From an uncultured Leptospirales bacterium (GTDB lineage: Bacteria > Spirochaetota > UBA4802 > UBA5368): 64,000 nucleotides of DNA. A model generated the notes under the pieces. It ran no database searches, was not told where the DNA came from, and saw only the letters and a list, made by a program, of their open reading frames with translations. The stretch covers positions 35,668 through 99,667 of the forward strand of contig CAZUXY010000002.1 in NCBI GenBank assembly GCA_964624235.1. Direction: 5' to 3'. Position numbers and translations under genes: made by a program. Below, in pieces: positions 1-61,234 of this stretch (its first letter is position 1; each line of letters starts with the position of its first letter).

Positions 1-2
1 GG

Positions 3-4127: not shown

Positions 4128-4164
4128 GGACGGTTCCGGCACTCCCGGCACTGCGGCGGAAGGA

Positions 4165-9103: not shown

Positions 9104-9720
9104 TGAACTCTTGTGCACAATATGGCGTTTCGTTCATCCTGACGGCTTTCCTGGCCGCGACAGGATGCGCATCGAGTCAAAACTGCGCCGGTTTTCCCAG
9201 CTGTCTCGAGATTTCATCCCCCGACATTCACCTGACCGGCGAGAAGACCGTGATCGAACGGCAGATGGTGGGGGAATACCGGGAGCTGGAAAAGGACGCC
9301 TGGATCATCGCCTCGGTCAAGACCGGGGTGGGCGACGCCAAGGGTGCGCCCCCGGTGCTCGGCGGCGACGAGGTGCTCTTCAGGGCAATGAAGATACGGG
9401 AATTCAATTCAGACAAGCTGCGCCGCTATAAGGACCAGGGCGCCCTGGGCGAAGGGTCGACCGGGCTTATCGCCTACATTTCACACCGCACCTACGAGCA
9501 GGACGGCGAAGCGAAAAAACTGCTGATACGCGTCGTCGAAGACGAGAATAACGCGCGCAGGACCATCTTCCGCCGCAGCCTCGAGAAAGCCGGTATCGAA
9601 AAACCCGGCGGCGAAGCGGTCGAGGCCTTCGGGTCGCGTTTCGCAGAAGAGCAGCGTGCGCTTGCGCGCCGTAACGACTGGGTACAGGAAAAATCAGGTC
9701 AGTGGGTGAGGAAGAAATGA
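9103..9720 (+). CDS. DUF1318 / YdbL-family lipoprotein
   Basis: Lipobox-like AATGC; GEKTVIERQMVGEY; GALGEGSTGLI; VVEDENNARRTI; C-terminal WVQEKSGQWVRK typical of YdbL. Confidence 0.8.
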   Translation: MNSCAQYGVSFILTAFLAATGCASSQNCAGFPSCLEISSPDIHLTGEKTVIERQMVGEYRELEKDAWIIASVKTGVGDAKGAPPVLGGDEVLFRAMKIREFNSDKLRRYKDQGALGEGSTGLIAYISHRTYEQDGEAKKLLIRVVEDENNARRTIFRRSLEKAGIEKPGGEAVEAFGSRFAEEQRALARRNDWVQEKSGQWVRKK

Positions 9721-12700
9721 GACGGCCGGTCGGAATATTCTTATCGCTGCTCGTCGGCTTTTCAGCGCCGGCCGGCTGTTACAGATCGGGCCCGCCGCCG
9801 GTTCAGTTCAATTATGGTGAGATACTGAAAAAGGCCTTCCGTTTCGAGGGCGAGGGCAGGGCCGTTCCCGTCACCATAGAGCAGTCCATAGAGGTAGACG
9901 GTACCGTCACGAACGACGGCATGTATTTCTTTTTCTCATCCGACCGAGAGAGAGGGAACTTCGATATCTACCTGCGCTCCCTCGCCGACATTACCACCGT
10001 GCGGATCACCTCCCATCCCTCCCGGGACTCTTCCCCCGCAATATCGCCCAGCGGCCGCTACCTGGCCTTCGTTTCCCGGCGGGAAGATCCAGAGGGTGAC
10101 ATTTTCGTGATTAAAGTTGACTGCAGCTCTCTCATAAAAAAAGCCGCGTCTTCGGTGAGCGGCGTCCCACCGCTGGACCCCTCGGCGGTGAACCTGACCA
10201 TGGGCGCCGATCCCGTGACGAAAGCTCCCACGGTGGTCAGGGACGATTCGCCCGCATGGTCCCCCGACAGCCGCATGATCGCCTTTAGCTCCGCCCGCGG
10301 CGGCACGCAGAACATATGGATAATGGAGCGCAGCGGCGCCAACCCGAGAAAGCTTACCACCCGTGGAGGGCTCTACCCCAGGTTCTCACCCGACGGGAAG
10401 AGCATCATATTCATCTCGTACCGCGACGAGGGGAGCAACGGCGACATCTATATCGTTGATGTGGAAAGCGGCCGGGAACGCCAGGTGACCAGGGGACCTT
10501 CCCTGGAGATGAACCCCTCCTTCATGAGAAACGCTTCCGCAATCGTCTATACCCTGATAGACCGCGACACCAGCGGTGACGGTAAACTGGATCTCAAAGA
10601 CAACTCGGTGATCTATTATAAAAACCTTACTGACGGGAGCGAATACCCCCTGACCCTATACTCGGGGTCCTCCTTCAGTCCGCGCTGGGCGCCCCTCTAT
10701 GAAGGCATCGTGGTATATTCTGAACAGGTCGGCAGGAACATAAACATCAACATAATTCCCGAACGCGGCGTCATACCGCTCAGGGAAAGCGCGGCCGCCC
10801 AGTACGATCTGGCGGTAAGGTACCTGAGGGAGTTCGACGACGCGGAACGTTACCTCATGGGACTGGAAAGGGTCTATTTTTTCTTCGGGAAGAAACGCGA
10901 TGTCGAATCACAGGTGCTCTGCGCCAGGGCACTCGCGGACGCGGCGGTTTATTACCGGCAAAAAGGAAATCGCGGTAGTGAGGAACGCATACGCGGGCAC
11001 CTTGCGTTCATGGCGTCGGCGAAAAACGAATACGCCGCCGTGACGCTGCGCTACCTGGACGAGCGGAAAGCACGGGGAAACGGGGCGGCGGCGTTCCTGG
11101 ACTCCCTGTACGCCATGCGCAAAAAGGCCCCCGCGGCTGATATGGTGCCCTACCTGCTGGAAGCGCTGGGGGATGAGTACGCACGTATCGGCAGGCCGGA
11201 GGAAGCGAGCGCCGGTTACCGTGAAATAATAACCTCCCACCCCGGATTCAAAAGGATCATCCATGTAAAATATAAACTCGCGGTATCTGGTCCCGTGGTC
11301 TTAAAGGAAGAAATATCACCCTACCTGCTCCAGGTGCTCAACACTAACATAACTTATCTGCGGAATGATGCAGTGGCGCATGTGCTCAAACTGCTGGAGA
11401 GTGAAAAAGACCTGGGGCGCAGAAGCGCCCTGATAGACCGGATGATGGTAAGGTACCGCAACGTTAAACCCATGCCAGGGTTGCTCCTCTATGCGGCGGG
11501 CAGTGCGACGTACCAGGCGGGCGACCTGAAGACCGCACGGACCCGGCTGCTCGAGGCATTGAAACTGGCCGGCAGGACCGACCTCCTGTCGTACAAGGCC
11601 AATGCCCTCCTGGGGACCATCGCCGAGCGGGAGAGAAATCCCGTTGAGATGGAGAAACACTACGCGGAGGTGGCCAATAATTACCAGACGAACTGGCCCC
11701 TGGGCGAAGCAAAAAAAATCGCCCTGAAACTGGTCGATTACTATGAGGACTACGGGGAGAGGGCGGAATACGCCGGTAATTACCGCGAGGCCGCGGCGCT
11801 GTACAAAAAATACGTCCATATGCTCACCTACCTGCACCTGAGAAAGCGTTTCGAGGACCTGTACAATGAACACGGCGCCCGAGCCCATGTGCTGTATATC
11901 GACGCCGGCGCCGATATGATCGGTGATGATTTTATTAAGCTCCAGGTGATCGAAAAGGAATACCTCAACCGCCTTAATATCGCCCGCATGGATTTCGACA
12001 AGGCCCACCTCTACGGGCTGGGCTATCTCTATGCACGAATGGCCCTGGTGAAGCAGCGGGATGAATCTGAGGGGATCAAGGGGGTGCTGCAATATTTTAA
12101 AATGGGGATCAACCAGCTGGACTGGGCGCTCTTCATCGACGACACCTTTATGGATCCGTACCTGCTCAAGGGATGGATCTACCAGTATGTGGACCTGGTC
12201 AGAAGTGAGGACCTGAAGCTGACCGGCGGCCGCAAGGAAAGAACGATAGAGGATTACTTTCCCCGCCACCTGTGGGAAAATTCCACGGGGCTGTACGAAA
12301 AGGCGCTGGCGACTAATCCCGAAGCCGAGAATCCCGAGACCGAGGGCAATCTGCACCTCAATCTGGCCAATACATACTTTCTGCTGAACAATTATCCCAG
12401 GGCGCTCGAGCATTACCGTCTTACCGCCCGCTATAAACGAAATTACTCTTCTAAAACCGTCGAGGCCTTTTTTCACTACCACTACGGTTACTGCCTGTGG
12501 CAGAGCAACCTGTACGCGGAGTCACGCGACGAAATGAACAAAGCGCTCTTCATTTATCAGATGCTGGGATCGGGGAAAAACCTGAAGCGGTACCGGTATC
12601 AGGTATTTTACCTCTACCGGTTTTTCGCGCTGCTCGCACGCGCCGAAAAGGACCATCGCGCGGCGATAGAATGGTATGTCAGAACGCTGGATTTCGCCCG

Positions 12701-15700
12701 AGCGAACCGTATCCACGTGGACCGCGCGCGTTATCTGCAGGAGATCGCCTCGTGCTACCGGGACCTGGGAGAAGAAGAAACGGCCCTTTCGTATCTGGAC
12801 CGTGCGTGGGCCCTCCTCGGCAAATACAGGGACACCAGGGAACAGTACAAGATGCGATGGAAGGTCCTGGGACTGGGACCCCTGAGGTTCTATGACCTCG
12901 GGCCCGACATCGCGGTCATCGGCGACAACAGGGTCTATACGGAACTGAATACCGCCGACAAACGTCTGCTTAACGTCTCCCTGCAGGAGGAGATCCATCA
13001 TGAAAGGGGCGATTATGCGGGGGCACTGACCTTCCTCCAGAGAAAAAACGAGCTGTTGAAAAAACCGGTCAACCAGACGGAACGTGAGGCCGCGGGGAAA
13101 ACCCTCAACAACATCGGTTTCGCCTGGTTCCGTATGGGTGAGTACCGTTACGCCCGGGAGTATTTTCTCAAGGCATGGGATTACGCGGCGCGGAAGGAGA
13201 TAAACGACCTCAATGGGATATTTGCTTCTATTATTAATCTTACCAATCTGTACGCCTTTCAGCTGGAGTCCGGTGCCGGGGAAAGCGACGCCGCGGCACG
13301 GGAGATAGAAGAACTGGCGTCCAGGGTTATGGCGTACCGCGACGGGTACGAGACCAGCCGTTACCAGAGTGAATTGAAGAGGCTTGAGCAGGAGGCCAGA
13401 ACAAAAAAGAGTACCCTCTCACCGGAGGAACTGTCGTCGCTCAGGGGAAAGATCAGGGAGGATGCCCTGCGGATATATTACTCTCTGGACATTGCGCTGG
13501 GCATACTCAAATTCTATAAGGCCGATACCATGCCGAATGTTCCGCAGGGGAAAGTCGGGACCGGTACGATGGACAGGGCCTATGAAATTTACGCCGACAA
13601 CCGCGACCGCTTCGCATTATACAACGAGGCGAGGATCCGTTTCGAGGCCGCCCTCGTCCAGGCGGGGGAAAGGATTTCAAAACGGCTGAAGGTGAAACTG
13701 CTGCTGAACCTCGCCTCATGCCAGGAACGCATCGGCATGATATCAGAGGCCTATGAAAGCTACGGCGAGGCCGAGAACGACGCCGCCGCGTACGAATACG
13801 GTGAGCTGAAATGGCAGGTGTACGCGGCCGTCGCCGGTTTTCTGCTGAAACACGGTGCTGAGATCGAGGGTAAGGATTACCGTACGGTCGCATGGGAATA
13901 TTACCGCCGCGCACTGCGGGAGATTGAAGTACTGCCGGCATTGTATGCGGCGGACATGCAGAGAATACTGCGCATATATGACGGGTATGCGGGGTTCCTG
14001 ATCGATACGGGAAGGCATAATGAAGCCCTGGAGGTGATGGAAAGGAAGTCCGAAGCGGAACGGATCATGTCCCTGTATCTCCTCGCGCCGGAGTTCCGTT
14101 CGGCCGACGACAACAGGGACTACCGGCGTTTCCGGGAATCGCTCTTCCGCCTAAAGGAATCCGGGCGGCAGGTTTCAGATCTGCTGGAAAGCGGACAGGC
14201 CAGGGATTCCGAAAAGGTCAGGCAGGAAATTGCTAAACTCGATGCGGTGAAAAAAAGCGTCGGAAAACTGGCGGGCGACTTACAGGAAAAACGCCCCCTC
14301 CTGGCTTCATATATGAAGTTTATGGAAGACAGGGTAAAACTCGATCCCGATACCGCGGGTTTTCGTTTTTTCATAAAAGGGGGGAACCTCTACGGCTGGG
14401 CGGTTACCTCGGAGGGAACCGTATTCAGGAACATCGGCGCGTTCGGTTCTGCGGAAAGGGACACCGAAGTTCGTCGTTTTATGGATTCTATTCCCCGAGG
14501 CCGCCGTCTGGTTGTTCTGGATAAGCATTCCGGATCGCTGCTGGGTGCGCTCGCCGTGCGTAATGTACCAACCGCACCACTTTTTGTCCCTTCTCTCGGA
14601 AGGGCCCGCTATCTTAACCGTAACGCAACCCTGGGGATATCCGGCGTATACGCAGACCAGAAAGGTATTATAAACCGGATCGCCGCTCATGAGGCGTTTT
14701 CATCCGTGATCTTCGAGGAGAACGGGCAAAAGAAAACCGGCTCCCTCCTCTATTCACTGATAATCGATGCCGGTGGTGAAAACGTTGCACAACGATTGTT
14801 TCGAGGGGATATGCGTCCGACGGTGCTGGTGAAAGGGGTTACGATGAAGGATATCCGTTCGATGCATATGATGATGGAAGCGTGTATGTACGCTGGGGTT
14901 GATTCCCTCATCATGTTTTCGGGGCTGGATTATGCCGGCATTGCCGGCCTCGTTCAAGAGCTTGCCGGGGTTAAATCGGCCGAAGGTGCGGCCCGTGGAC
15001 TGGTGTTACGATGGGGAGCGCCCGGGTCGGCGAAGATCGCCGGAAAAGGGAAAGATACCGCGTCTGCTGAACGCCTCTATGCTTCCTTCCAGAAGGAATA
15101 TGCCGCGGGAAACCTGCGCGAGGCTGAGATACGTCTGCTCAGATGGAAGACGGCGGCGGGGAATGCGCCCGATGTGGAGTCTCTGTACTGGCTTAAAAAA
15201 TCCGAGATCGAGACGGCAGAGGGACGCCACGACGCGGCCGTGCAGGCGGCGGATAAAGCCCTGGGCCTTTCCGCCACCGGCAGCCCGGGTATTTTTGCCA
15301 ACGCGGTTTCTATGAAGATATCTCTGCTGCTGTGGGAAGGCGACATTACCGCGGCAGATGAACTGATGCGGCGTACGAACACTGCGCTTTCCGGTACGCT
15401 GGATGGTCTGGTATATAACTCGATTGTCAGGATCATGAAGGGCGAATCACAGAAAACCGGTCTTCAGGCCATGGAAGGACTTAAATCGCTGGTCAGCCGG
15501 GACCGTCTGCGTATACTACAGGCTCTGTACCTTTCACTGGCAGGAATGGAGACCGTGGCACGTAATTCCCTGCACGATCTTGCGTTCGACATTCCCCTGA
15601 GTGAGAGGGAACTCTGCGCCGCGGTGTATATGGGGACTACGCCTCCCGGCGGGATACAGTCCCCGCGGGTCAGAGGACTCGCCAAACTTGCACGTCTGGC

Positions 15701-17555
15701 CGAAAACCCGGAACTGCTTAGGCGGGAAGCCGCCCTGCTAGCAGAGAAGGAAGGCGGGTATGACGACAGTTCCCCCTTTATAGTGCTGTCGGCGCTCAGG
15801 ATTATGGTCGACCAGAGCAGGTTCGATCAGGTCGATGCTCTTGTGAATCTGGTCGACCAGGGCGCGCTCTACAAAAAAGGGCACTGGACCGGCGCGGTCC
15901 TGCTGGGGATGTCGCTGGAAACGATCTATCGAGCCGAAGATAAAAGCGGTGATGCCCTCAATACCCTGGGGGCGGTACTGGAAGCGCTCGGGCAGCGTCC
16001 TGTCCCCATGGTACGCAGGGACCTTTTCTACCGTCAGGCGGCTCTTTATGCCTTCATCGACCGTTATTTTGAAGCTTATGAATCGGCACGTGCAGGTGAA
16101 AAACTGCTGATCGCGGGGGACACCGGACTTTCGACCCGGTATGGCCTGCTGCTTGCCGAATGCGAAATCTCGCTTGGTAGATTCGACGATGCGTCGCGAA
16201 GGCTGGACTCGATCGATAAATCCACGCCTGAAGTGGAGTTTGCCTATGCGTTGCACCTGTTAAGGGCCCGTCTTGAGATGGCAAAAATAATCAGGCAGAA
16301 AAAGGCCGAAGAGAGAGACTGGAAAACGGTAGAATCCCTTGTTTTGAAAGGGCTCGAGGCGATCGATCGAAACCCCGAAAGCCTGGTACGTTTCAACAAG
16401 GCATATATGGTGTTCCAGAGTCTTGATTTTCTCATCTCATATAAGATGAGCAGAAAGGACTATCTGACCGCGCTGTTATACGCTGAAATCAGTAAACAGA
16501 TACGAATACGGCTTCGCTTTCCGGAAACATACAGGGATTCGGATATCCCCGACGCAATAAGGACGGAATTTAAAAATATCAGGGACCGACGTGCCGGAGG
16601 GGACCGTTTTGTGCAACTGCTCGATCGGTATCCCGGTCTGATGTCTAATTCTCTGATAGCTTCGCTCCCCGTGGACCGGTTCCAGAAAAAAATTCCCGAA
16701 AACGCGGTGGTGCTTTATTTAACCAGGAACGGGAATGACATTCTTGCATGGGTAATAGACCGCCGGTTCATAGAACCCCTGCGGCTGAAAGACGGATACT
16801 CGAGAGCCGCGTCCGCTTCCGGGGCATACAGGAACGCCCTCGCGACATTTGGAAACACCATAACGGTGTCGAGAGATCTGTATTCGGTTTTTTCCCCCCT
16901 CGAAAGGTTTTACCGGAGTAAAAAAACGGTGATCTTTTGCACCGACAGCCATCTTGAAAGAGTGCCCTTTGAAATTATGGGCGATAAAAACATGCTTGAG
17001 GAGTCCCATTCCGTGGTTTTTCTCAGTTCGATCCTGTCCGGTCTGCGGGAATACCATCATGGTGCAAACCAGGTAGTGCTGGTTGAACCGGAGCGCCCCT
17101 CTATATATGCGGACCTCGAGATCACGGCGATACGCCAGTCGGGGATACCCTTCCGGCATGAAAAGATCATAAGCGGCGACAGGGGGCATGTGCTTTCTCC
17201 CGTATATTATAATCCATTGAAAAATGTGCTCATGGTCAACGGGAAGCCTTACACTGCAATGATGAAGAATGCCCGGACACTGTATTTTTCCGGTTCAGAC
17301 GGTACGGGCATCCTGGGAAACAATGAGCTTGCCCTGTATAATTCCCTCAGGGGAGTGAACGCGATGGTGGTAAACGACGCCGAAATACGCGATGTGAACG
17401 GCGCCGTCTTTGTTGATGGTTTTTACACCGTTCTCAGGACCTCAGGTGATGTTTTAAAAGCCTTTGAAGCCGCAAAAACATCCGTGAGGGGAAAGAGGCG
17501 GTTCAGTTATCCCGCCTATTGGGCCGAAATTCGATTGTACATAAATGGATTGTAA
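9717..17555 (+). CDS. Giant lipoprotein: TolB-like PD40 propeller, TPR array, degenerate CHAT-like module(s)
   Basis: ATG 9717 overlaps the upstream TGA. Signal peptide ending SAPAGC; PD40 repeats (DSSPAISPSGRYLAFVS, DDSPAWSPDSRMIAFSS, LYPRFSPDGKSIIFIS); TPR helices; CHAT hallmarks LERVPFE and YPAYWAEIRLY. Confidence 0.8.
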   Translation: MRRPVGIFLSLLVGFSAPAGCYRSGPPPVQFNYGEILKKAFRFEGEGRAVPVTIEQSIEVDGTVTNDGMYFFFSSDRERGNFDIYLRSLADITTVRITSHPSRDSSPAISPSGRYLAFVSRREDPEGDIFVIKVDCSSLIKKAASSVSGVPPLDPSAVNLTMGADPVTKAPTVVRDDSPAWSPDSRMIAFSSARGGTQNIWIMERSGANPRKLTTRGGLYPRFSPDGKSIIFISYRDEGSNGDIYIVDVESGRERQVTRGPSLEMNPSFMRNASAIVYTLIDRDTSGDGKLDLKDNSVIYYKNLTDGSEYPLTLYSGSSFSPRWAPLYEGIVVYSEQVGRNININIIPERGVIPLRESAAAQYDLAVRYLREFDDAERYLMGLERVYFFFGKKRDVESQVLCARALADAAVYYRQKGNRGSEERIRGHLAFMASAKNEYAAVTLRYLDERKARGNGAAAFLDSLYAMRKKAPAADMVPYLLEALGDEYARIGRPEEASAGYREIITSHPGFKRIIHVKYKLAVSGPVVLKEEISPYLLQVLNTNITYLRNDAVAHVLKLLESEKDLGRRSALIDRMMVRYRNVKPMPGLLLYAAGSATYQAGDLKTARTRLLEALKLAGRTDLLSYKANALLGTIAERERNPVEMEKHYAEVANNYQTNWPLGEAKKIALKLVDYYEDYGERAEYAGNYREAAALYKKYVHMLTYLHLRKRFEDLYNEHGARAHVLYIDAGADMIGDDFIKLQVIEKEYLNRLNIARMDFDKAHLYGLGYLYARMALVKQRDESEGIKGVLQYFKMGINQLDWALFIDDTFMDPYLLKGWIYQYVDLVRSEDLKLTGGRKERTIEDYFPRHLWENSTGLYEKALATNPEAENPETEGNLHLNLANTYFLLNNYPRALEHYRLTARYKRNYSSKTVEAFFHYHYGYCLWQSNLYAESRDEMNKALFIYQMLGSGKNLKRYRYQVFYLYRFFALLARAEKDHRAAIEWYVRTLDFARANRIHVDRARYLQEIASCYRDLGEEETALSYLDRAWALLGKYRDTREQYKMRWKVLGLGPLRFYDLGPDIAVIGDNRVYTELNTADKRLLNVSLQEEIHHERGDYAGALTFLQRKNELLKKPVNQTEREAAGKTLNNIGFAWFRMGEYRYAREYFLKAWDYAARKEINDLNGIFASIINLTNLYAFQLESGAGESDAAAREIEELASRVMAYRDGYETSRYQSELKRLEQEARTKKSTLSPEELSSLRGKIREDALRIYYSLDIALGILKFYKADTMPNVPQGKVGTGTMDRAYEIYADNRDRFALYNEARIRFEAALVQAGERISKRLKVKLLLNLASCQERIGMISEAYESYGEAENDAAAYEYGELKWQVYAAVAGFLLKHGAEIEGKDYRTVAWEYYRRALREIEVLPALYAADMQRILRIYDGYAGFLIDTGRHNEALEVMERKSEAERIMSLYLLAPEFRSADDNRDYRRFRESLFRLKESGRQVSDLLESGQARDSEKVRQEIAKLDAVKKSVGKLAGDLQEKRPLLASYMKFMEDRVKLDPDTAGFRFFIKGGNLYGWAVTSEGTVFRNIGAFGSAERDTEVRRFMDSIPRGRRLVVLDKHSGSLLGALAVRNVPTAPLFVPSLGRARYLNRNATLGISGVYADQKGIINRIAAHEAFSSVIFEENGQKKTGSLLYSLIIDAGGENVAQRLFRGDMRPTVLVKGVTMKDIRSMHMMMEACMYAGVDSLIMFSGLDYAGIAGLVQELAGVKSAEGAARGLVLRWGAPGSAKIAGKGKDTASAERLYASFQKEYAAGNLREAEIRLLRWKTAAGNAPDVESLYWLKKSEIETAEGRHDAAVQAADKALGLSATGSPGIFANAVSMKISLLLWEGDITAADELMRRTNTALSGTLDGLVYNSIVRIMKGESQKTGLQAMEGLKSLVSRDRLRILQALYLSLAGMETVARNSLHDLAFDIPLSERELCAAVYMGTTPPGGIQSPRVRGLAKLARLAENPELLRREAALLAEKEGGYDDSSPFIVLSALRIMVDQSRFDQVDALVNLVDQGALYKKGHWTGAVLLGMSLETIYRAEDKSGDALNTLGAVLEALGQRPVPMVRRDLFYRQAALYAFIDRYFEAYESARAGEKLLIAGDTGLSTRYGLLLAECEISLGRFDDASRRLDSIDKSTPEVEFAYALHLLRARLEMAKIIRQKKAEERDWKTVESLVLKGLEAIDRNPESLVRFNKAYMVFQSLDFLISYKMSRKDYLTALLYAEISKQIRIRLRFPETYRDSDIPDAIRTEFKNIRDRRAGGDRFVQLLDRYPGLMSNSLIASLPVDRFQKKIPENAVVLYLTRNGNDILAWVIDRRFIEPLRLKDGYSRAASASGAYRNALATFGNTITVSRDLYSVFSPLERFYRSKKTVIFCTDSHLERVPFEIMGDKNMLEESHSVVFLSSILSGLREYHHGANQVVLVEPERPSIYADLEITAIRQSGIPFRHEKIISGDRGHVLSPVYYNPLKNVLMVNGKPYTAMMKNARTLYFSGSDGTGILGNNELALYNSLRGVNAMVVNDAEIRDVNGAVFVDGFYTVLRTSGDVLKAFEAAKTSVRGKRRFSYPAYWAEIRLYINGL

Positions 17556-45211: not shown

Positions 45212-46819
45212 TCAGAATGTGCCTGATGCGGATAGGTCAAGGGTGCTGTGCTGAGAGTTGTTTTTTTCGAACTGGTGCAGGTATCGAACTCCCAGGGTAA
45301 TATCGTTCCAGTGCAGATGTGCTTTACACACCAGGATATCAGAAGATTCGCGAATGAAAATTCCCGGTATGCTGGAACCCTCCATAGGCGCAAGCACTGC
45401 GTACATCGACCCCTTTTTTTCCATGAAAAAACGGGCATAGTGAAACATGACTGATCTGCCGGGTTTGCCTTTAAGCAGCACACCGGAAGAAAACATGAAC
45501 GCATCAGGTCCGTTTCGTTCCCACTGGTATGTTGAAGCCGCCTGCAGATAGAGTTGGTTTGTTACCGCCATGAACCGAAGGTTCTGATGCAACTGGCGAC
45601 TGAGCTCAGTGGTTCCTCCCGATTCTTTTTTTAGTGTTCTAAAAGAAATACGCGCGGTTTCAATGCGTTTAAAATTTAAATTCAGAGCAACACCTTCCCT
45701 TACCGTACGAGGCAGTTCCCTGTCAGACGATGAGGGATAGAGCCTTTTTTCAACGGCCAGGTAAGCCTCAGCCGATAGAAAAGGCAGCACGCGACAACCC
45801 GTTTCCATAAATACGGCGCTCTCGGGATAACGGTCGCCTATAGTATTATTGTAGGGGGCATTGTAAGAAGACTCTGTTTTTTTCCGAACCAGGGAAAGCT
45901 TGAAACGTTGATGGTTGAATCGAAAACCGTACAGCGCTCCAACCCCCCTGCTGACAGCCGTAGCCCCCCGGACAGTATGTCTGTGCGTGCTTGTAATGAC
46001 CGATTCAACGAAGGCGCTGAAATAACGGTCGGTATAGCAGACAATCATACCCGCCCCTCCTGCAGCTGAAACCGCCCCCCGCACGGTATCTTCTTCACCG
46101 TCCCAGAGGACTTCAGAACCTGCCGGTGTGCTGACCCATGTGGAAATGCAGTACACCTGCATCAGCAGCATTTCCCCCACGGAAATCGAAATCATCAGAC
46201 CGGTATTATTAATGAGTACTGGTTCTGTGTGGGAAATATCCGGTATATATGCCCTTTCTATGGTGCCGATTGACGACGATACGCTTCCGCTGAAGTACCC
46301 CTCTTCGTTGATAAAACGCCGGTTGACCGAATAATACGCATTTATCGTAAGGTCCATATTGTCCAGGCCGATGTTACAGACCGCGGCCGCGCCGTGGAAT
46401 GCATACGCCGGATTCCCGCTGTTTACCGGAGTATATATTCTGTTCTGCATGGAGGAGAAGCGGTAATCGAAACGGTCTGGATTGTAAGCCATGTATCTGC
46501 CTATCAGCAGTCCCATGCCGTAATTGACCTGAAAGTGTCCAAGAATCAGGGAAATGGCCGGGGATATGTCCATAAGCATGAGGTTCCAGGTCCAACTGCG
46601 CGATTCGTTGCTGGATCTGCATACCATGGCGATGTTCAGCATACTGCGGGGACTGAAGATCATGGAGTTTTTTATACGGTAAAATGACTGCGTGGATTCC
46701 TCATAGTCCACCGCATCATAACGGTATTCGGAACGGACGAATATCTGCGGATTTCCGTATGCCGGGTAGTGACACATCGTCGCCGCGTATAGAAGTATTA
46801 CCGCAAGACGTCGTTGCAT
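45212..46819 (-). CDS. Outer-membrane beta-barrel resembling the barrel part of FCB-group ComEA/HhH barrel proteins, without its own HhH
   Basis: Signal peptide; ILGHFQVNYGMGLLIG and NSGNPAYAFHGAA motifs; many amphipathic strands; terminal Phe (LSASGTF). Confidence 0.65.
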   Translation of the reverse strand: MQRRLAVILLYAATMCHYPAYGNPQIFVRSEYRYDAVDYEESTQSFYRIKNSMIFSPRSMLNIAMVCRSSNESRSWTWNLMLMDISPAISLILGHFQVNYGMGLLIGRYMAYNPDRFDYRFSSMQNRIYTPVNSGNPAYAFHGAAAVCNIGLDNMDLTINAYYSVNRRFINEEGYFSGSVSSSIGTIERAYIPDISHTEPVLINNTGLMISISVGEMLLMQVYCISTWVSTPAGSEVLWDGEEDTVRGAVSAAGGAGMIVCYTDRYFSAFVESVITSTHRHTVRGATAVSRGVGALYGFRFNHQRFKLSLVRKKTESSYNAPYNNTIGDRYPESAVFMETGCRVLPFLSAEAYLAVEKRLYPSSSDRELPRTVREGVALNLNFKRIETARISFRTLKKESGGTTELSRQLHQNLRFMAVTNQLYLQAASTYQWERNGPDAFMFSSGVLLKGKPGRSVMFHYARFFMEKKGSMYAVLAPMEGSSIPGIFIRESSDILVCKAHLHWNDITLGVRYLHQFEKNNSQHSTLDLSASGTF

Positions 46820-48123
46820 GTTCTGACGATTGTTTCTTTAATATGGGATGGTATCCCTTCCATGGAACCGACCAGCACCTTTAACTCTTTAAGACCGTGT
46901 TTTGCGGCAAGATCGCATATCCGTATTGCGGTACCTGAAGGCACTCCGGCATCGAGCAGCTTCTGAAACAGTTCTTTTCTTTTTGCCGTTCCATAACCGC
47001 CTCCCGGTTTTCTTTCACGGCCATGCTTCATTATTGCTTTTCCGGGATGAGGTTTGGTATCGGGAGCCAGTCCGCAAAGGTAATTCTGCAGTATCATGAC
47101 CTCCTTTTCCGAAAGACCGACCTGGTACAGTGATTTCAGGGTGATGGGGCCGACCAGCTCACGATAGCGTACCAAACGAACGGCGATCTCTTCGGTGACC
47201 ACCGGCAGGGAACGGAGTTCATCCAGGGAACAGCGGTTGATATCAACAGGCTTATCGGGGGGGTCGTAATGCGGTTCCCTGCGGCCGACAGAAGGAAATT
47301 TTACGGGTACTGCTTTCAAAGGAGTACCTGATATCGTTATCCCTATGGAATGTGTGGTGCCGAGCATGCTGTGGTATTCCATTCCGTAAGAGATTCGAAA
47401 CCGCCGGTAGAGTATGATAATCGACATTGAACACGCCGCCGTCTCCCTCGCATACCCGGCGTTTACTATAATGAAGGAAAGCAGGTTTACCGACGCCGAG
47501 ATACTGTTCCGGTATCCATAATAGGTTCTGCCGATGTTCCAGATGCAGTGTACTCCCTCAACGGGAGTAACCTGTATTGCACCGCACCATGAAGGATAAA
47601 GGAGATCCTTCCTGCCGGGATCGGCCAGTGAGCGGATATTGTCCTGTATGAAACTGAATTGAAGGAAATCGAAAGGGGTAAACAGTACGGCGGAGTACAG
47701 GTCTGACATATAACTGTTTACGGATACTGCATCAGTGCGTATGCGCAGATGGTATAGTGCTGATCCCAATCCGGCGGCAAGATATGGAAGCACACGATAA
47801 CCGACGGCGGCTTCCCAGGTCTGTTCGCGGTACTCGGTGATTCCGAAAGAGTTCCATGATACACCGATGCCCTTTTTCCCGTCAGAGTACCCTCCCGCAA
47901 CGGTCCCGGCATTGATTTCATCGAGTGTATAGGGTTTGCTGTATGAGGTACTGAGATAATATGTTTGCAGCAGCGGGATGAATGATGGGTTTAAGTGGTT
48001 CCCCAGGGGGGAGGGATCTCCAATGGCGCAGCGGTAATGGAACAGGTAACCCGGTGATGTTTCACGGTACTCAAAAGCCTGCAGGCTCAGATGAGGTATG
48101 ATCATGAGCAGAAGTAGCTTCAT
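46798..48123 (-). CDS. PorV/PorQ-like beta-barrel fused to a ComEA-type helix-hairpin-helix domain
   Basis: Signal peptide; NP.FI, SYSKPYTLDEI, YGMEYHSMLGTTHSIGI barrel; Pro-rich linker; VDINRCSLDELRSLP...IAVRLVRYRELVGP HhH. Confidence 0.72.
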   Translation of the reverse strand: MKLLLLMIIPHLSLQAFEYRETSPGYLFHYRCAIGDPSPLGNHLNPSFIPLLQTYYLSTSYSKPYTLDEINAGTVAGGYSDGKKGIGVSWNSFGITEYREQTWEAAVGYRVLPYLAAGLGSALYHLRIRTDAVSVNSYMSDLYSAVLFTPFDFLQFSFIQDNIRSLADPGRKDLLYPSWCGAIQVTPVEGVHCIWNIGRTYYGYRNSISASVNLLSFIIVNAGYARETAACSMSIIILYRRFRISYGMEYHSMLGTTHSIGITISGTPLKAVPVKFPSVGRREPHYDPPDKPVDINRCSLDELRSLPVVTEEIAVRLVRYRELVGPITLKSLYQVGLSEKEVMILQNYLCGLAPDTKPHPGKAIMKHGRERKPGGGYGTAKRKELFQKLLDAGVPSGTAIRICDLAAKHGLKELKVLVGSMEGIPSHIKETIVRTCNDVLR

Positions 48124-49145
48124 CGGCCGTAACGGCTCACAATGATATACACGACCGACGTTTCCTGTTTTTTGAGTTTTGTACTGGTTCCTTCAATACG
48201 GCCTATATAGAATCCGCTTGAAGCCCTGCGGCCGCGGCCCCGAAAATCCCAGGGAATTGAAAACTCTCCGGGGAACACATCGCGATAAAGCGGTGACTCA
48301 AAGATGCACAGACCCACCGAGGTGAATATCTTGAAACGGATATTGCAGGGGTTGTATACAAAAAGATCAATCTTGCCGGTACCCAGTGTGGGATGTGAAG
48401 GAACAAATGTGATCTTTTTCTTTCTGGATGAGAAAAGACGGGTATTCCCTCCGGTATTGATGGGTCCTATATTGTCTCGTCCCGGCGTCTGGAATGTGGT
48501 GACCGTGAAGTCGTCGGGACCGTTGGTGTCGTTTGTTCGGGTCCGAATTATACTCATATGGGACGCCAGGCCGTCATTGTCTATGGGCACCAAGCATAGC
48601 TGAAGGTTCGGCTCGCCGCAGACTGTCCATTGGCCCGCTCCCTGTGCGTCCAGTATATACGACATGATGGTTTCGTTAAGGCTCCCGTCCCTGTTGGAAT
48701 ACGCGCAAAAGTCGATAATGCCGCCGTTGCCGGGATCATCATCAATGTCTATGGCGACAATCCCGTCACTGTTCCAGAGACTGCCCGAATAGTTATTACA
48801 ATAAAGGTCTATGTATCCGTTGTGATTGGTGTCCCCGGTAAGATCAGTTTCGTCTGTAATGGGAGACGTAAGGTGCACCACCGCATAACGGTCGTCATAA
48901 GGGGTTTCGGGCCTGTCCCTGGAGCAGAGTGTGACCGGTTCGACAGCCAGAGGTTCATTGGTGCCGTAGTACATGGTGACATAAAGACCTGATATGTCCA
49001 TGCTGACGTCTTCGGTGTCGTATAGAAACAGCTCCACCCAGTCGTCACCGGCGGTTCCGCAGGCGATTTCGTTGATCATGAGTGCTGAAGTGGCCTGCAC
49101 CGGGATCAAGACCAATAAGAGTAACAGCAGGTATGGTTTCATCAT
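48120..49145 (-). CDS. Secreted lamin-tail-domain protein with a C-terminal FlgD-Ig / T9SS-CTD-like domain
   Basis: Signal peptide; INEIACG...DWVELF and DTN..DDF....TPG.DN (LTD); C-terminal FKIFTSVG...PGEFSIPWDFRGRGRRASSGFY. Confidence 0.78.
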   Translation of the reverse strand: MMKPYLLLLLLVLIPVQATSALMINEIACGTAGDDWVELFLYDTEDVSMDISGLYVTMYYGTNEPLAVEPVTLCSRDRPETPYDDRYAVVHLTSPITDETDLTGDTNHNGYIDLYCNNYSGSLWNSDGIVAIDIDDDPGNGGIIDFCAYSNRDGSLNETIMSYILDAQGAGQWTVCGEPNLQLCLVPIDNDGLASHMSIIRTRTNDTNGPDDFTVTTFQTPGRDNIGPINTGGNTRLFSSRKKKITFVPSHPTLGTGKIDLFVYNPCNIRFKIFTSVGLCIFESPLYRDVFPGEFSIPWDFRGRGRRASSGFYIGRIEGTSTKLKKQETSVVYIIVSRYGR

Positions 49146-49327
49146 GTCTCCCCGGAAGATATACGGGGAAGAGGTCTGAAATGTTAATTTTTTTAACTAA
49201 GGATTTATTGAGGTGCACAGTGTCCAAGGTATATATCGGCAGTGAAAGAGGGAGTGTGTGTGCGGCGACGGCTATTTTCGAAAATTATTTCTTGACCGGT
49301 ACCCGGAAAAAAGGAAAGGTATCGAGC

Positions 49328-49966
49328 ATGGTCCACCTTGATAATCCCTACCCGGCGCTCAGACCGCGGCCGGCAGCCTTTATTCCGCTTGTATTGCTGT
49401 ACATTGCCGGATATCTCTGTTTTTCCTTTCATGCTTTTTCCTTTATTTATCAATACACGCTGACAATTGTATTCCTGGTTTTTTCCGCGTCGTTTTTCGA
49501 CCGTGAATTATTGAGCAGGGCCAGGCTTTTCTCCCTGCCCGGGAAAAGAAATCCGCACTTGGTGTTCATTCTGCTTCTTGCGGCGCTGGTTGTGTTTCTT
49601 TACGCGGAAGGAAAGCTGCTTTCACGGAATTTGCTGGTTCGTGATTTCTATCTGAGAGGAACACAGGGGCTGCGTACGGAGCATATTATAGTACTGCTGT
49701 TCATCGCCGTGCCTTTCGAAGAGATTTTTTTCAAGGCGTATGCCCAGAGGAATCTCATGAACCTGCTTGGGCGTATACCCGGATGGGTATTGTGCGCTTT
49801 TGCATGCGGCCTCTTTTTTCTGCTTTCCGGCAACCGCAACCTTGCGCTCAAGATGACACTGACTGCTCTGTGTGTCGGTTATATCTACCATAAAACTGAT
49901 TCCATTCCTCAGGTGGTTACGGCACGTGTTCTGCTCACAGGCCTGGCACTGTTGCTCCCACTGTGA
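49328..49966 (+). CDS. CPBP (Abi/CAAX-like) intramembrane protein
   Basis: Multi-TM; VPFEEIFFK.Y.Q and YHKTDSI motifs. Start moved to ATG 49328. Confidence 0.75.
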   Translation: MVHLDNPYPALRPRPAAFIPLVLLYIAGYLCFSFHAFSFIYQYTLTIVFLVFSASFFDRELLSRARLFSLPGKRNPHLVFILLLAALVVFLYAEGKLLSRNLLVRDFYLRGTQGLRTEHIIVLLFIAVPFEEIFFKAYAQRNLMNLLGRIPGWVLCAFACGLFFLLSGNRNLALKMTLTALCVGYIYHKTDSIPQVVTARVLLTGLALLLPL

Positions 49967-50270: not shown

Positions 50271-51383
50271 ATGGAAATGAAAAGGAATCCGATCACTCCC
50301 GACGCGTTAACGGCCTTCGCCGCCGCTTCATATATTCCTTTCAAATCAGGTGCCTCAAAAGCGGATGTGGTCAGATCGATTGCGGAAAAAATATCTGCGG
50401 AACTCGGAAAACAACTGCATCCCGCCCTGCTCTCCCGTCCTGACGATGTGTCCGTGAAGTTCATTGAGCTGCTGGACCAGATAGTATTTGAGATGGAAAG
50501 CGCGCATAACGGTAACGGCAACAAAACCGAAGATTATATAATTGACGATCTCTACGGGCGTGCTGAAGTTTTCCTGGAGTATTATAATGACGTAGAAAAA
50601 TATAAAAAAGGACTCGCCAGCCGCATTCTCACCCTGGACGATACGGTCATTATCGGCCACAACCGCATGAATGAATATATACCGGTGCTGATGTCGGAAT
50701 TCAACGACCAGCCCCATCTCCGCTTCGCAATACTTCAATCCCTGTCGCTGTTCGACGATGAATCTTTGATCAATTTCTTTTATGAAATAGCCAATAATGG
50801 TCATGAAATAGAATTGAAAATTGTAGCTCTCCTGGGACTGAAGAACAACCGGAACAGGTTTTATAACTGGCACCGGCTGAACGGGCAGGAAGATCTAAAA
50901 TACAAGTCCCTTATATCCTATGTGACCGAAAATGGGAATTCCGGCCGTATCCACGTCTCAAATCCCTATGTTCTTTTTTACCGACTCCTCATACTGGACC
51001 ATACCCTGAAAGGCGAGATGAATGAAGCGCACTGCAGGGATTTGCTCGATATCCTTAATGATGTTGCGGATGCGGACCTGGAATCAACCGCGTTGAAAAA
51101 TGTGATGGAAGAGGTTTTTTCCAGTATACTCAGCAAGGTCAACAGTGAGGCCATGCAGCAGTTCCTGGAATGCGGGGATAACCTTGCCGCTTTCCTGAAT
51201 TCCCTCGAGTTTCTTCCTCCGGAGATTTTTGAAAAGGCCGTGGTAATGATCGGTTCAATGAATGATCATCTAATTTTGGAGATTGAGAAGCTGTCGGCGA
51301 AGGGATTAATCAGCATCAGCGACCGGAATCTGAAGTTCTCGGCATATCTCTTCCCCCACGAACCGGGGAATATCGAATTTTAG
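50271..51383 (+). CDS. Hypothetical all-helical (HEAT/ARM-like) protein
   Basis: 370-aa ORF with plausible codon use and no recognised family; LRFAILQSL and LKIVALLGL look like HEAT helices. Confidence 0.65.
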   Translation: MEMKRNPITPDALTAFAAASYIPFKSGASKADVVRSIAEKISAELGKQLHPALLSRPDDVSVKFIELLDQIVFEMESAHNGNGNKTEDYIIDDLYGRAEVFLEYYNDVEKYKKGLASRILTLDDTVIIGHNRMNEYIPVLMSEFNDQPHLRFAILQSLSLFDDESLINFFYEIANNGHEIELKIVALLGLKNNRNRFYNWHRLNGQEDLKYKSLISYVTENGNSGRIHVSNPYVLFYRLLILDHTLKGEMNEAHCRDLLDILNDVADADLESTALKNVMEEVFSSILSKVNSEAMQQFLECGDNLAAFLNSLEFLPPEIFEKAVVMIGSMNDHLILEIEKLSAKGLISISDRNLKFSAYLFPHEPGNIEF

Positions 51384-57823: not shown

Positions 57824-57912
57824 CGCTCCAGACAGCGCAGAGCGTGGTAAAATATTTGACATGTCATCGAAGACTGCATATTTCTTGTATACCATCTTTT
57901 TTAAATCCAAAT

Positions 57913-58002
57913 GGAAGCGGATGGGGTCCGGTGGCCCCCGCGGTCTTCAAAACCGTAGACTGCAATATATTGCAGTGGCAGGTTCGATTCCTGCCCCTTC
58001 CG
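57913..58002 (+). tRNA. selC: tRNA-Sec (anticodon UCA), CCA not encoded
   Basis: GGAAG 5' end, 6-bp D stem with CGGT loop, GCGGT-CTTCAAA-ACCGT, long variable arm ACTGCAA-TATA-TTGCAGT, GCAGG-TTCGATT-CCTGC; adjacent to selA. Confidence 0.96.
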
Positions 58003-58016
58003 CATAGGCAGAACCA

Positions 58017-59411
58017 ATGGAAGAAACCGCCGACATCCTGCGCCGCATTCCACAGGTTGAAAAGCTGCTTCAATCGAAAGAGATACGCGGTTTTATCAGG
58101 GTAATAGGACACAACGTGGTTGCCGGGATAATCAAGGAAGAAGTGGCCCGGTTCAGGGAGATACTGAAAGTCAGGAACGGCGCAGACATGGGGGACCTGA
58201 TAAACAACGTGATCGCCGGCTGCGAACTGAAACGGCTCGAAAAACTGCAGAGGGTCATCAACGGAACAGGCATCATCATTCATACGAACCTGGGCCGTTC
58301 GCCCCTCGGCACGGACACACTGGATGATTTAACGAAAGCGCTTTCCGGTTACTGTAACCTGGAACTCTACCTCCCTGAAAAAAAGCGCGGACGCCGCGGG
58401 GGTTTTGCCGAGGGACTTTTAAGTTCCCTTGCCGGCGCAGAAGACGCACTGATTGTCAACAACAACGCCGCATGTGTTTTCCTGATTTTAAAGGAATTCG
58501 GTGACGGTAGGGAAGTGATCGTCTCACGCGGTGAACTGGTGCAGATCGGCGGCGGCTTCAGGATACCCGATATCATGAAACAGACGGGGGCGTCCCTGGT
58601 GGAGGTGGGCACCACCAACATCACCACCATTGAGGATTACCGAAACGCCGTTAACGATAACACCGCCATGATATTCTCCGCTCACCGATCGAACTTCCGC
58701 ATGGAGGGTTTCAGCTCTGGACCTGAGATGAGGGAGATCGCCGCCTTGAAATCCGACGCCGTACTTTACGTGAGAGATCTGGGCAGCGGCAACGTGGTAC
58801 ACGATACCCGGCTGCCCTCGTCTTTCGAGGTTACGGTTGAACATGAGCTGTCGCAGGGGGCAGACCTCGTATGTTTCAGCGGCGACAAGCTTCTGGGGGC
58901 CTGCCAGGCCGGGATTATCGTGGGCAGACGGGATCTGATCGCCCGACTGAAGAAGAACCCTCTTTTGAGAATGATCAGGGTCGACAAGATCACCTACTTT
59001 CTTTTACAGGAAACCCTGCTGAAATACGTGAACGGACAAACCGATGAGGTAAAACTCTGGTCGATAATCCACCAGAACAGGGATGACCTGGGGAAAAGGA
59101 TTAACAGGCTGATGCGTCTCATTTCATCGCCTCGCAGGAAAGAGTTTCTTGTGAGGACTTCACTGAAAAGCACGTACGGTGGGGGATCCATGCCGGGAAG
59201 CACTATAGAGAGCACGGGGCTGCGGGTTCGATTACCCGGAAAGAATGCCGAAGAGATCATTGCCTTCCTTACACGGCAGGAGGTGCCGGTGGTGGGTTAT
59301 ATTGAGGGCAATGATTGTATACTTGATTTTATGACCATCTTTGATGCGGACCTCAAAGATCTCGCCCGGGCATTGAACCTGCTTATCGCCCGTACCGTCG
59401 GAGCCGGCTGA
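58017..59411 (+). CDS. selA: L-seryl-tRNA(Sec) selenium transferase
   Basis: [51 protein letters not shown] (PLP Lys). Confidence 0.97.
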
Positions 59412-61234
59412 TGTATATCGTCGGTACCGCCGGGCACATTGACCACGGGAAAACCAGCCTCATCAAAGCGCTCACCGGCATTGATTGCGACCGTCTGCCC
59501 GAAGAAAAAGAACGGGAAATGACCATCGACATCGGTTTCGCCCGCATCGAATACCCGAAATTCGGTACGGTGAGCATTATCGACGTTCCAGGGCACGAAA
59601 GGTTCATTCGTAACATGGTGGCCGGCGCCTGGGGTATGGACCTTGCGCTTCTGGTTGTTGCGGTGGATGACGGCTGGATGCCCCAGACGGAAGATCACTT
59701 CCGCGTACTGTCGCTGCTCGGGGTAGAGAGGATGGTGGCGGTGCTGAACAAGATAGACCTTGCCGATGCCGAAATGATCGCGTTCGTCGAGGAGGAGGTG
59801 AGGGAAAAGGTTCGAGCATCGCGGTTTTCAGGTGCCGACCTGGCCAGGGTCTCGTCACGAACCGGCGGGGGGATCCCTGAGCTCCGGGAGCTCATATTAA
59901 AAAATCTTAAAATGCTGGCAAAAGCGGCGGATTCGCGGAAACCCTATCTTTTTGTGGACCGGGTATTTGCGGCAAAAGGGTACGGCACTGTGGTCACCGG
60001 GACACTGAAAAACGGATCGTTCCATGACGATGATTCCGTTGTAGTACTGCCGGAAGGCAGGGAGGTGAGGATAAAGAAGATCGAAAGCCATAACCGGGAA
60101 ATCCCTGAGGGTGTACCCTCCCAGAGGACCGCCCTGAATCTTGCCGGCATATCCTCTGATGAAATACACAGGGGCCATATCGTCGTAAGGAACAATTTTT
60201 TTACGGATTCCCCAGAGTTCATAGCGAGAATCGAGTTGCTGGACAGGGTAAGGGAAATAAAAAACAATACGGGGGTTGAAGTCCTCATAGGAACAGAGTC
60301 TCTGAAGGCAAAACTCATTTTTATTAATAATGCGCCAGAGGGGAGGAATCCATTTAACGCGCGAATCAAACCGGAAAAGCCGTGGCACTGTTTTCCTGGA
60401 CAGCATTTTGTCCTGACCAGGCCAGGCGGTTACCGCGTTATGGGCGGTGGAACGGTTGTCCTGCCGGACTACCGTTCTCTTCCGTCTCGACGTGCGGCAC
60501 ACCTGTTCCTCCCGCTGATATGTACCGGTAATGCTGAAGAATTGCTGCTGTACACGGTTTCGGCGCACGGGTTTATCCCGGAAAAACGTCTTGAGTCAAT
60601 GTTTCCACAAAGCGCAAAGGTTCTCGAAAAGATGATTGTGTCACTGATTGATACGGAAAAACTATTGCGGAAGGGTGAATATATTGTTGAAGGACGTTAC
60701 TACAAAGAAACCGCCGAAAAAATAGCGGAAGCGGTAAAGGGAACCATAGGACTCAAACTCAGGGAGATAGCCGATAAGGCCGGTATAAACGCTGATTTCT
60801 GCCGTGAAATTATGGCGTATGTCGCTGAAGAATACGGCATGGTGGAAAAAGACGGGAAGTATTTCACGGGAAGTGCAGTCACTCCCGAAACGCTCCCGCA
60901 CGCAATGAAATCCGCTTTAGCGGGCATCGAACGGAACGGTATCGAGGGAATTGAGCTTGAACGGGTTTCTGATGAGGCATTCAAGAAACTGATCAAGGAC
61001 CTGGTAAAGCTTGATCTTGCAGTCAGTCTGGACGGGAACATCATTCTGCACAGGAGTGTATATGAGGACCTGAAAGAAAAGATAATGGCCCTCTTCGCAA
61101 AACTCGAACGCATAACCGTACCAGACGCCAAAGATGCGACCTCACTCTCGCGAAAATATATTATTCCACTGCTGAACAGGATTGAAGGAGACGGCTTGAT
61201 AAAACGGATAGGCGATTTCAGGATCAAAGCGTAA
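59411..61234 (+). CDS. selB: Selenocysteine-specific elongation factor
   Basis: [34 protein letters not shown]-terminal SRKYIIPLL; TGATG overlap with selA. Confidence 0.97.

Follow-up and report, generated by a model that had tools for sequence, protein, structure and literature searches.

Type IX secretion, by the system abbreviated T9SS, is restricted to Bacteroidota and the superphylum around them, Fibrobacterota-Chlorobiota-Bacteroidota or FCB (PMC4793230). Within this system, the barrel PorV carries substrates that bear a type A C-terminal domain (CTD), in which one lysine is invariant, while type B cargo leaves on alternative carriers that anchor it at the cell surface (PMC10994853). 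The FadL family of barrels also includes BamG, whose extended strands form a pillar that anchors the extracellular protein BamH and which is essential in Flavobacterium (PMC12611786), and a set of orthologues in the spirochaete Treponema pallidum, which are 14-stranded, carry an NPA or NAA hatch motif and, in three cases out of five, end in a presumptively periplasmic alpha-helical extension (PMC8407342). PorV-type carriers and Ig-like C-terminal sorting domains have been treated as T9SS hallmarks of Bacteroidota and their relatives. The subject of this work is a three-gene locus in which the same two types of part are found in a strictly conserved single-cargo operon of uncultured Spirochaetota, and again in an Elusimicrobiota genome. 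The locus lies in a 64,000-nucleotide stretch of DNA (hereafter the window) from an uncultured Leptospirales bacterium (assembly GCA_964624235.1, contig CAZUXY010000002.1, positions 35,668 to 99,667). No description of this module, of PorV in spirochaetes, or of a lamin-tail domain (LTD) together with ComEA was found in the literature. The three genes form a head-to-tail triad on the minus strand, at window positions 45212-49145:

48120-49145, minus strand: gene 1, 341-aa open reading frame (ORF); putative secreted cargo with signal peptide, LTD and C-terminal Ig-like tail
46798-48123, minus strand: gene 2, 441-aa ORF; predicted PorV/PorQ-type FadL-family barrel fused to a periplasmic helix-hairpin-helix (HhH) tail
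45212-46819, minus strand: gene 3, 535-aa ORF; signal peptide and beta-rich protein with C-terminal Phe, a probable large outer-membrane barrel of a new family

An original prediction, made from the letters of the DNA, had described three coupled genes with signal peptides, and direct reading of the window bears this out: the stop codon of gene 1 and the start codon of gene 2 share an ATGA at 48120-48123, the reading frames of genes 2 and 3 overlap by 22 nt (46798-46819), and a GGGGAG Shine-Dalgarno sequence stands upstream of gene 1. Each of the three N-termini has a brief charged stretch, then hydrophobic residues and a site like AxA, as expected of Sec-type signals, and a conserved lipobox Cys is absent from each (by eye and from alignments). 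In scans of Pfam and NCBIfam, the only curated threshold passed by a triad protein of the window is that of HHH_3 in gene 2; models for PorV, PorP, FlgD_ig and the CTDs (type A, PF18962 and TIGR04183; type B, CHU_C, PF13585) gave no match at E<=1 for any of the three proteins. Direct matches being few, the domain names given at first reading required independent support, and they appear to hold mostly by way of bridging homologues. The description of the locus in the original prediction is thus confirmed, and its interpretation, a minimal unit that displays a CTD-tagged cargo and binds or imports extracellular DNA independently of a full T9SS, is partly supported. Four of the parts are of kinds already known, the barrel being FadL/PorV-type, the sorting tail Ig-like and the other two an LTD and a ComEA-type HhH. 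New are the constant way in which these are combined, a PorV-like barrel that is fused to HhH, the gene 3 family and the host phyla.

Conservation of the triad and its relation to type IX secretion

Gene 1 has at least 274 homologues at 50-65% identity, nearly all of them in metagenome-assembled genomes (MAGs) of Spirochaetota, while a word-seeded search returned only 9 matches for gene 2 and 3 for gene 3, both of which diverge faster. All named homologues of gene 1 are annotated "hypothetical", and those of the triad families as a whole carry either that label or "helix-hairpin-helix domain-containing". When one genome per GTDB species was scanned with the gene 1 alignment, 76 loci were recovered, 72 of which belong to Spirochaetota MAGs or a single-amplified genome and none to a cultured species. 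The order and strand of the three genes are kept in every one of the 65 genome loci with enough downstream DNA, usually with overlapping frames, and a metagenome scan with a gene 1 alignment added approximately 42 complete triads, all of spirochaete type, with zero exceptions among loci that were long enough. A metagenome scan that used the Elusimicrobiota homologue of gene 2 found nothing. The co-conservation on which the original prediction had staked itself is therefore far beyond chance.

The genes that flank the triad differ between the 65 genome loci, the commonest being a divergent, apparently cytoplasmic protein of about 370-372 aa that lies upstream in only 26 of them. Neither the window nor some 1.3 Mb of flanking DNA contained a paralogue of the gene 1 tail, the gene 2 barrel or gene 3, from which it follows that cargo and barrel pair one to one and, together with the fixed triad and its changing flanks, that the unit consists of exactly these three genes in one copy each. 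They are translationally coupled and always inherited together, and this coupling, the synteny and the one-to-one pairing support a joint complex. That the three genes are neighbours only, without a shared function, is hardly credible: their reading frames overlap, more than 100 independent loci keep their order unchanged as the neighbours vary, and the same triad is met in another phylum.

Comparison with the T9SS reveals both likeness and departure. As in PorQ-PorZ and PorV-PorU, the models of the triad proteins combine a 14-stranded barrel of the FadL family with a secreted partner that ends in a 7-stranded Ig-like handle, and gene 1 shares with the type A cargo of PorV a basic residue near the C-terminus. 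Unlike PorV and PorQ, however, the gene 2 barrel is much smaller (about 250 mature residues), has short loops, lacks direct membership by hidden Markov model (HMM) and is fused to a periplasmic HhH; to our knowledge no PorV or PorQ is fused to HhH domains. A second point of comparison is offered by type B CTDs and their PorP/SprF-like carriers. In Flavobacterium johnsoniae, sprB and sprF are adjacent, and in such pairs the cargo gene is directly followed by the gene of its cognate carrier, one to one, as in the triad; in addition, CHU_C accounts for most of the Pfam matches that the gene 1 tail makes below threshold. Gene 2, in contrast, resembles PorV/PorQ and not PorP/SprF, and there is no evidence of a T9SS translocon at the triad. 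The host of the triad also stands outside the FCB superphylum, and a dedicated one-cargo operon with no SprA, PorKLMN or PorU seen nearby differs from the T9SS attachment complex: no T9SS core protein is found among the ten largest ORFs of the window, and none of SprA/Sov, PorK/L/M/N or PorU recurs in the flanks of the 65 triad loci. Within the scope of the 64-kb window and these flanks, independence of the triad from a full T9SS is plausible.

Gene 2: a predicted FadL-family barrel with a helix-hairpin-helix tail

The gene 2 protein can be divided into four regions:

47962-48075, minus strand: aa 17-54, N-terminal segment resembling a hatch; motif of the NPA type, which reads NPS in the window protein
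47329-47961, minus strand: predicted 14-stranded beta-barrel, aa 55-265 (AlphaFold/DSSP, Foldseek, barrel-only HMM)
47074-47268, minus strand: ComEA-type HhH domain, aa 286-350 (Pfam HHH_3, PDB profile matches)
46801-47073, minus strand: K/R-rich disordered linker, aa 351-378, and basic four-helix domain, aa 379-441 (AlphaFold model)

An AlphaFold model computed from nine sequences (predicted local distance difference test score, pLDDT, of 79) places 14 strands at aa 55-265 by DSSP, of which strands 4-6 are unusually long (15-18 residues), followed by the HhH helices at aa 300-346, a disordered stretch at aa 357-375 (pLDDT <50) and further helices at aa 379-440; the hatch segment is modelled at low confidence. 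The 14-stranded antiparallel barrel that characterises the FadL/PorV/PorQ superfamily is reproduced in this model. Foldseek ranked FadL (2r89) first (E 4e-8), OmpG second and PorV (6h3i_F) third (E 9.5e-8), while the highest query TM-score was that of PorV 8gl6_F, from a substrate-bound translocon. The consensus of the hatch reads AFEYRE...NPAYLP, with N-P-[AS] in 26 of 40 orthologues, and an NPA hatch motif is a hallmark of the FadL family (PMC8407342). At the level of the model, the expectation that the N-terminal part of the 441-aa protein would fold like FadL and PorV has thus stood.

Relationship by sequence is provided by a bridge, located in seven consecutive same-strand genes of an Elusimicrobiota MAG (locus L080, positions 1-10440, JBDRKX010000061.1):

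L080, gene 1 of 7: LTD and FlgD_ig cargo
L080, gene 2 of 7: PorV_fam barrel with 2 canonical HHH_3
L080, gene 3 of 7: 2 HhH and a large barrel; weak co-linear match to the HMM of triad gene 3
L080, gene 4 of 7: BamG/FadL-like barrel, BamG-like match 1.7e-30
L080, gene 5 of 7: S8 peptidase with CHU_C/FlgD_ig tail
L080, gene 6 of 7: PorV_fam/UPF0164 barrel
L080, gene 7 of 7: C10 peptidase with CHU_C/FlgD_ig tail

The barrel-only HMM of triad gene 2 matches the second of these proteins, encoded next to the homologue of triad gene 1, from end to end (60 bits; E 2e-17 with Z=3210), and this protein in turn matches PorV_fam (NCBIfam NF033709) at 6e-15 over profile positions 12-326 of 326. The PorV/PorQ-like character assigned to gene 2 at first reading is therefore retained with regard to the modelled fold and the bridge; a canonical PorV or PorQ orthologue was considered and rejected, the curated PorV_fam cut-off not being reached. 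On the model, gene 2 is best described as a distant PorV/PorQ-type member of the FadL superfamily. The array itself carries a further message. Genes for tailed cargo repeatedly adjoin genes for FadL-family barrels in it, which supports the principle of cargo-carrier pairing, and it suggests a wider scheme of sorting by PorV and tail in a phylum outside FCB. Both barrels that accompany the LTD cargo carry canonical ComEA-type HhH, four HHH_3 in total, whereas those associated with proteases carry none; since it is only LTD cargo that goes with HhH-bearing barrels, in both phyla, LTD and HhH are functionally tied.

The evidence on the barrel also bears on two explanations in which DNA plays no part. 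In the first, gene 2 imports some hydrophobic or amphipathic nutrient in the manner of FadL, genes 1 and 3 encode accessory binding or channel proteins, and the HhH acts only as a protein-protein adaptor. The top rank of FadL in Foldseek and the conserved NPA-type hatch speak for it, as does the precedent of UPF0164/FadL proteins of T. pallidum (TP0548, TP0859 and TP0865), spirochaetal barrels that share with gene 2 the hatch motif and a periplasmic helical C-terminal extension, present in three of the five orthologues (PMC8407342); in addition, one gene 2 orthologue has a weak match to UPF0164, and HhH folds can be structural, PsbU and GspK being among the HhH-fold matches. The extension in T. 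pallidum, however, is a TPR-like three-helix bundle rather than a ComEA-type HhH, and those orthologues, which are thought to import hydrophobic nutrients, are unpaired with any CTD-tailed cargo. Nutrient import leaves unexplained both the obligate pairing with a CTD-tailed LTD protein and the recurrent pairs of cargo and barrel in L080, where the bridging protein matches PorV_fam over its full length and FadL/Toluene_X over 38 residues only (E 0.0019); we consider it unlikely.

The second explanation assigns the triad to envelope architecture or biogenesis, with gene 2 as a BamG-like pillar for an extracellular canopy protein, genes 2 and 3 tethering or organising the outer membrane, and no role in DNA. 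Gene 2 resembles BamG in being of the FadL family and in having three unusually long strands, one of its orthologues gives a weak BamG match, and a BamG-like barrel is present in the L080 array. The anchoring of extracellular BamH by BamG, essential in Flavobacterium, offers a precedent, and the high conservation of gene 1 and the single-copy module with housekeeping-type neighbours would fit such a role. On the other hand, BamG and BamH are reported from the majority of FCB phyla (PMC12611786), and no BamA, BamD or BamH-like gene is linked to the triad. BamH, a lipoprotein, is attached through its N-terminal tail, whereas gene 1 offers a C-terminal Ig-like domain; BamG binds BamA and is without HhH, while gene 2 has one, and the conservation of HhH across two phyla would remain unexplained. 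A purely architectural role is, on this balance, quite improbable.

The HhH domain itself was correctly called as ComEA-type. HHH_3 (PF12836) covers aa 291-328 of the window protein at 30.1 bits against a cut-off of 27 (E 5e-7) and is present in all nine gene 2 orthologues (best 3.5e-11); profile matches in PDB include ComEA (8dss, 8dfk) and EEPD1, and searches of PDB chains with gene 2 by sequence and profile return HhH proteins only. Of the two G-hydrophobic-G hairpins with which a ComEA-type HhH contacts DNA phosphates, the second has retained one Gly in gene 2, as Q-[IVLM]-G-[LMIV], and hairpin 1 is variable in spirochaetes (PVV, NLF, GIA, PGL). The tail is basic, with net charges of +2, +3 (linker) and +4 (four-helix domain). 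Both ends of a 14-strand outer-membrane barrel face the periplasm. The HhH, the linker and the helical tail follow strand 14 and are therefore periplasmic, a topology that rules out the binding of extracellular DNA by the HhH. A periplasmic HHH_3-type domain is also what ComEA presents; that of gene 2 differs in being fused to an outer-membrane barrel, in the degenerate hairpin 1 of most spirochaetes and in the lack of linked competence genes. In the L080 homologue a second true HHH_3 sits at the position equivalent to the four-helix domain, which is possibly a second and degenerate HhH pair.

An E-Y-R motif is common to the mature N-termini of both barrels, within the consensus AFEYRE in gene 2 (aa 17-21, window 48060-48075) and the consensus EYRxDAxDY in gene 3 (aa 29-34, window approximately 46718-46735); it may be an element of recognition or pairing, or a coincidence.

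Gene 1, the putative cargo, and the gene 3 family

Gene 1, in which the motif WDFRGRGRRASSGFY is found, is modelled by AlphaFold (38-sequence alignment, pLDDT 86) as a pair of beta-sandwich domains (aa 20-230; aa 238-336):

48456-49088, minus strand: lamin-tail domain, aa ~20-230 (weak Pfam LTD match, HMM bridge, helical insertion)
48123-48434, minus strand: C-terminal Ig-like domain, aa ~238-341; FlgD_ig/T9SS-CTD-like, basic, ends K/R

The N-terminal domain opens with an LTD-like LLINE...DWVEL motif and contains, within invariant D/E/N/G columns of the alignment, the acidic Ca-loop-like motifs DETDxTGDTNxNGxID and DxDDDPxNGG. The direct Pfam match to LTD (PF00932) is weak and below cut-off (E 0.079 for the window protein; four of 38 orthologues at E<=1), and no lamin tail was found when the LTD profile was compared to PDB sequences, nor is a lamin-tail entry evident among the top 50 of a whole-chain Foldseek search with the gene 1 model. 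Assignment at the family level is provided by giant proteins of Thermoplasmata (loci L079 and L075), in which the gene 1 HMM matches repeats that Pfam scores as LTD at 1e-61, at overlapping coordinates; an FG-GAP match in these giants would fit Ca-binding loops. The LTD named in the original prediction thus appears to hold as a family relationship, the direct match being weak. In two other archaeal proteins of about 1030 aa, both from uncultured archaea (L074, 9944-13057; L078, 9863-12949), a gene 1-type LTD occupies the N-terminus and is joined to a pair of PLD-like (phosphodiesterase-family) domains and to CarboxypepD_reg domains, and this fusion links the LTD type of gene 1 to exoenzymes that cleave phosphodiesters.

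The tail is modelled with about seven main strands (nine DSSP segments) at aa 244-336, with a pLDDT of ~90, and so has the form of a C-terminal Ig-like beta-sandwich of 80-100 residues and some seven strands. CHU_C (PF13585, type B) is matched by ten of 38 orthologues, with a best value of 2.7e-4, and FlgD_ig (PF13860) by three, all of them below threshold. As for gene 2, an L080 homologue (36-1118) serves as a bridge: the alignment of the gene 1 HMM runs unbroken through its C-terminal domain, which passes the FlgD_ig cut-off (36.5 bits against 27, E 4.9e-9) and gives weak matches to the CTDs of PorZ and PorU. The FlgD-Ig/CTD-like tail that had been proposed thus appears to be upheld through this homologue and the CHU_C matches of the orthologues. 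The tail profile against PDB sequences gave NHL-repeat noise and a marginal match to the T9SS CTD of NucA (8glk_D, E 0.087), and the whole-chain Foldseek search yielded generic multi-Ig matches at low TM-scores, with PorZ at rank 6, and is uninformative. A TGLY motif is present in the tail, and an SRY[RK] or KK terminus in nearly all 38 orthologues.

The LTD, with a median net charge of -22 (pI 4.05), is so acidic that direct binding of DNA by it would be unlikely without bridging cations, while the tail has a net charge of +8 (pI 9.8). Gene 1 is in this sense strongly dipolar; the periplasmic tail of gene 2 is also basic, and an electrostatic contact with the LTD inside the periplasm may be conceived.

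A membrane-protein ORF on the plus strand (window 49082-49966) overlaps the 5' end of gene 1. It has weak CPBP-type matches to MrtJ, MrtS and MrtP, intramembrane glutamic proteases of C-terminal sorting systems, at E 0.013-0.36 and far under their cut-offs, and it is not among the recurrent neighbours of other triad loci.

Gene 3 has no match to a Pfam or NCBIfam family, and profile-profile comparison shows no relationship to gene 2. Designed toroid repeats, the only PDB sequence matches, were judged spurious. When 1.84 billion representative proteins were searched exhaustively by HMMER with the gene 3 profile, the yield was only 121 relatives, all orthologue-sized or fragments with the exception of one spurious repeat protein, and no bridge to any known family; by these searches the family is closed and lineage-restricted. 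By a crude Chou-Fasman prediction, strand makes up 37% and helix 4% of the protein across 48 orthologues, which resembles the barrel region of gene 2, and the C-terminal residue is Phe in 40 of 58 orthologues, most others ending in L or Y. Mean-field direct-coupling analysis of 149 sequences (effective number, Meff, 124), aimed at a count of strands, gave a marginal signal, with an antiparallel-ladder sum of 99 above threshold against 68 for a parallel control. With regard to the "barrel ending in Phe" of the first reading, the terminal Phe is present in the window protein and the beta-rich character stands, while the barrel itself is a prediction from these two traits, albeit a likely one; its size could suffice for a barrel of at least 20 strands.

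Such a barrel would be central to an import of DNA across the outer membrane that is independent of PilQ, in which gene 3 forms a wide DNA conduit, the HhH tail of gene 2 a tethered ratchet of the ComEA type and the LTD a cation-dependent receptor or gate. The co-inheritance of LTD and ComEA-type HhH in two phyla, with four canonical HHH_3 on two L080 barrels, would be accounted for, as would the basic periplasmic tail of gene 2, the fusion of the same LTD type to PLD-type domains and a gene 3 product large enough for 20 strands or more. The strong negative charge of the LTD, the degenerate hairpin 1 of spirochaetes and the absence, across the 65 loci, of any conserved link with comEC, dprA or pilus genes nevertheless speak against it, and DNA import in this form appears improbable.

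A possible dedicated cargo-carrier complex

The reading that we tentatively favour is that the triad forms a single dedicated complex in the outer membrane, which follows the cargo-carrier principle of the T9SS and probably handles DNA. PorQ holds PorZ, PorV holds PorU, and SprF-type carriers hold type B CTD proteins. By analogy with these, the gene 1 tail would dock on the extracellular face of the gene 2 barrel, and possibly also within gene 3, and stay uncleaved, holding the Ca-loop LTD at the cell surface. Gene 3, a predicted barrel of about 510 mature residues, would co-assemble with genes 1 and 2 and be the likeliest route of the cargo through the outer membrane, while the periplasmic HhH tail of gene 2 would most likely bind nucleic acid. 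The complex as a whole would handle DNA at the envelope, by capture and hand-over to the periplasm, rather than serve general protein secretion.

Precedents for FadL-family barrels that anchor extracellular proteins are found, by analogy, in PorV and in BamG-BamH (PMC10994853, PMC12611786). The pairwise distances of the gene 1 tail correlate with those of both barrels better than the distances of the LTD do (r 0.85 and 0.89 for the tail, 0.59 and 0.76 for the LTD), although as support for a contact this correlation is weak, being confounded by shared phylogeny. A link to DNA is probable in view of the HHH_3 in all members, the HhH barrels of L080, the LTD-PLD fusions and the basic periplasmic tail. 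The DNA-handling role proposed in the original prediction is accordingly upheld in part, by the recurrence of the LTD/HhH pairing in Elusimicrobiota and by the PLD fusions, and weakened in part, by the acidity of the LTD and the loss of G-x-G in hairpin 1.

Several observations weigh against the favoured complex. With regard to its carrier, none of the 40 gene 2 orthologues matches PorV_fam at E<=1, and the bridging protein of L080 reaches 55.6 bits, below the curated cut-off of 90. With regard to its cargo, gene 1 of the window has no direct CTD match at E<=1, and the LTD, with a mean pairwise identity of 59% as opposed to 26-34% for the barrels, is unusually conserved for a surface domain and would equally fit a periplasmic location. 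The G-x-G of HhH hairpin 1 is lost in most spirochaete members of gene 2, no competence gene (comEC, dprA, pilus genes) is a conserved neighbour across the 65 loci, and an energy source for export is not evident.

A bolder form of the same idea dispenses with the T9SS motor and translocon altogether and regards the triad as a self-contained machine, with gene 3 as a minimal translocon and/or DNA conduit, gene 2 as carrier and tethered ComEA, and the LTD protein as sole cargo and surface receptor. This is an unlikely extension; if true, it would be a PorV-CTD system beyond the FCB superphylum, where none has been shown before, and would let DNA cross an outer membrane without a secretin. Should the docking of tail on barrel in the favoured complex be true, the cargo-carrier principle would predate the T9SS itself and be the more modular of the two, and the triad would offer a small and tractable three-protein system for the study of how FadL-family barrels hold surface proteins; if the link to DNA is true, a mode of DNA handling at the diderm envelope that has not been described would be added.

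Other features of the window can be listed briefly. A scan for promoters and terminators returned fewer sites than shuffled sequence and is uninformative. The divergent neighbour that is commonest upstream of the triad is here represented by the following gene:

50271-51383, plus strand: divergent neighbour, 370 aa; no NCBIfam family match at E<=1

Further away (window 57912-61234), two ORFs of 464 and 607 aa come after a tRNA-SeC with anticodon TCA, and they have sizes that match those of the SelA and SelB genes beside the triad in another locus (L001), which also has a SelD-like gene; the organism therefore appears to use selenocysteine. Finally, in a 2617-aa ORF on the plus strand (window 9702-17555), PD40 beta-propeller and TPR repeats are combined with a caspase-like CHAT domain at the C-terminus; after this ORF come genes for a response-regulator/SpoIIE phosphatase and for a protein with a FecR domain.

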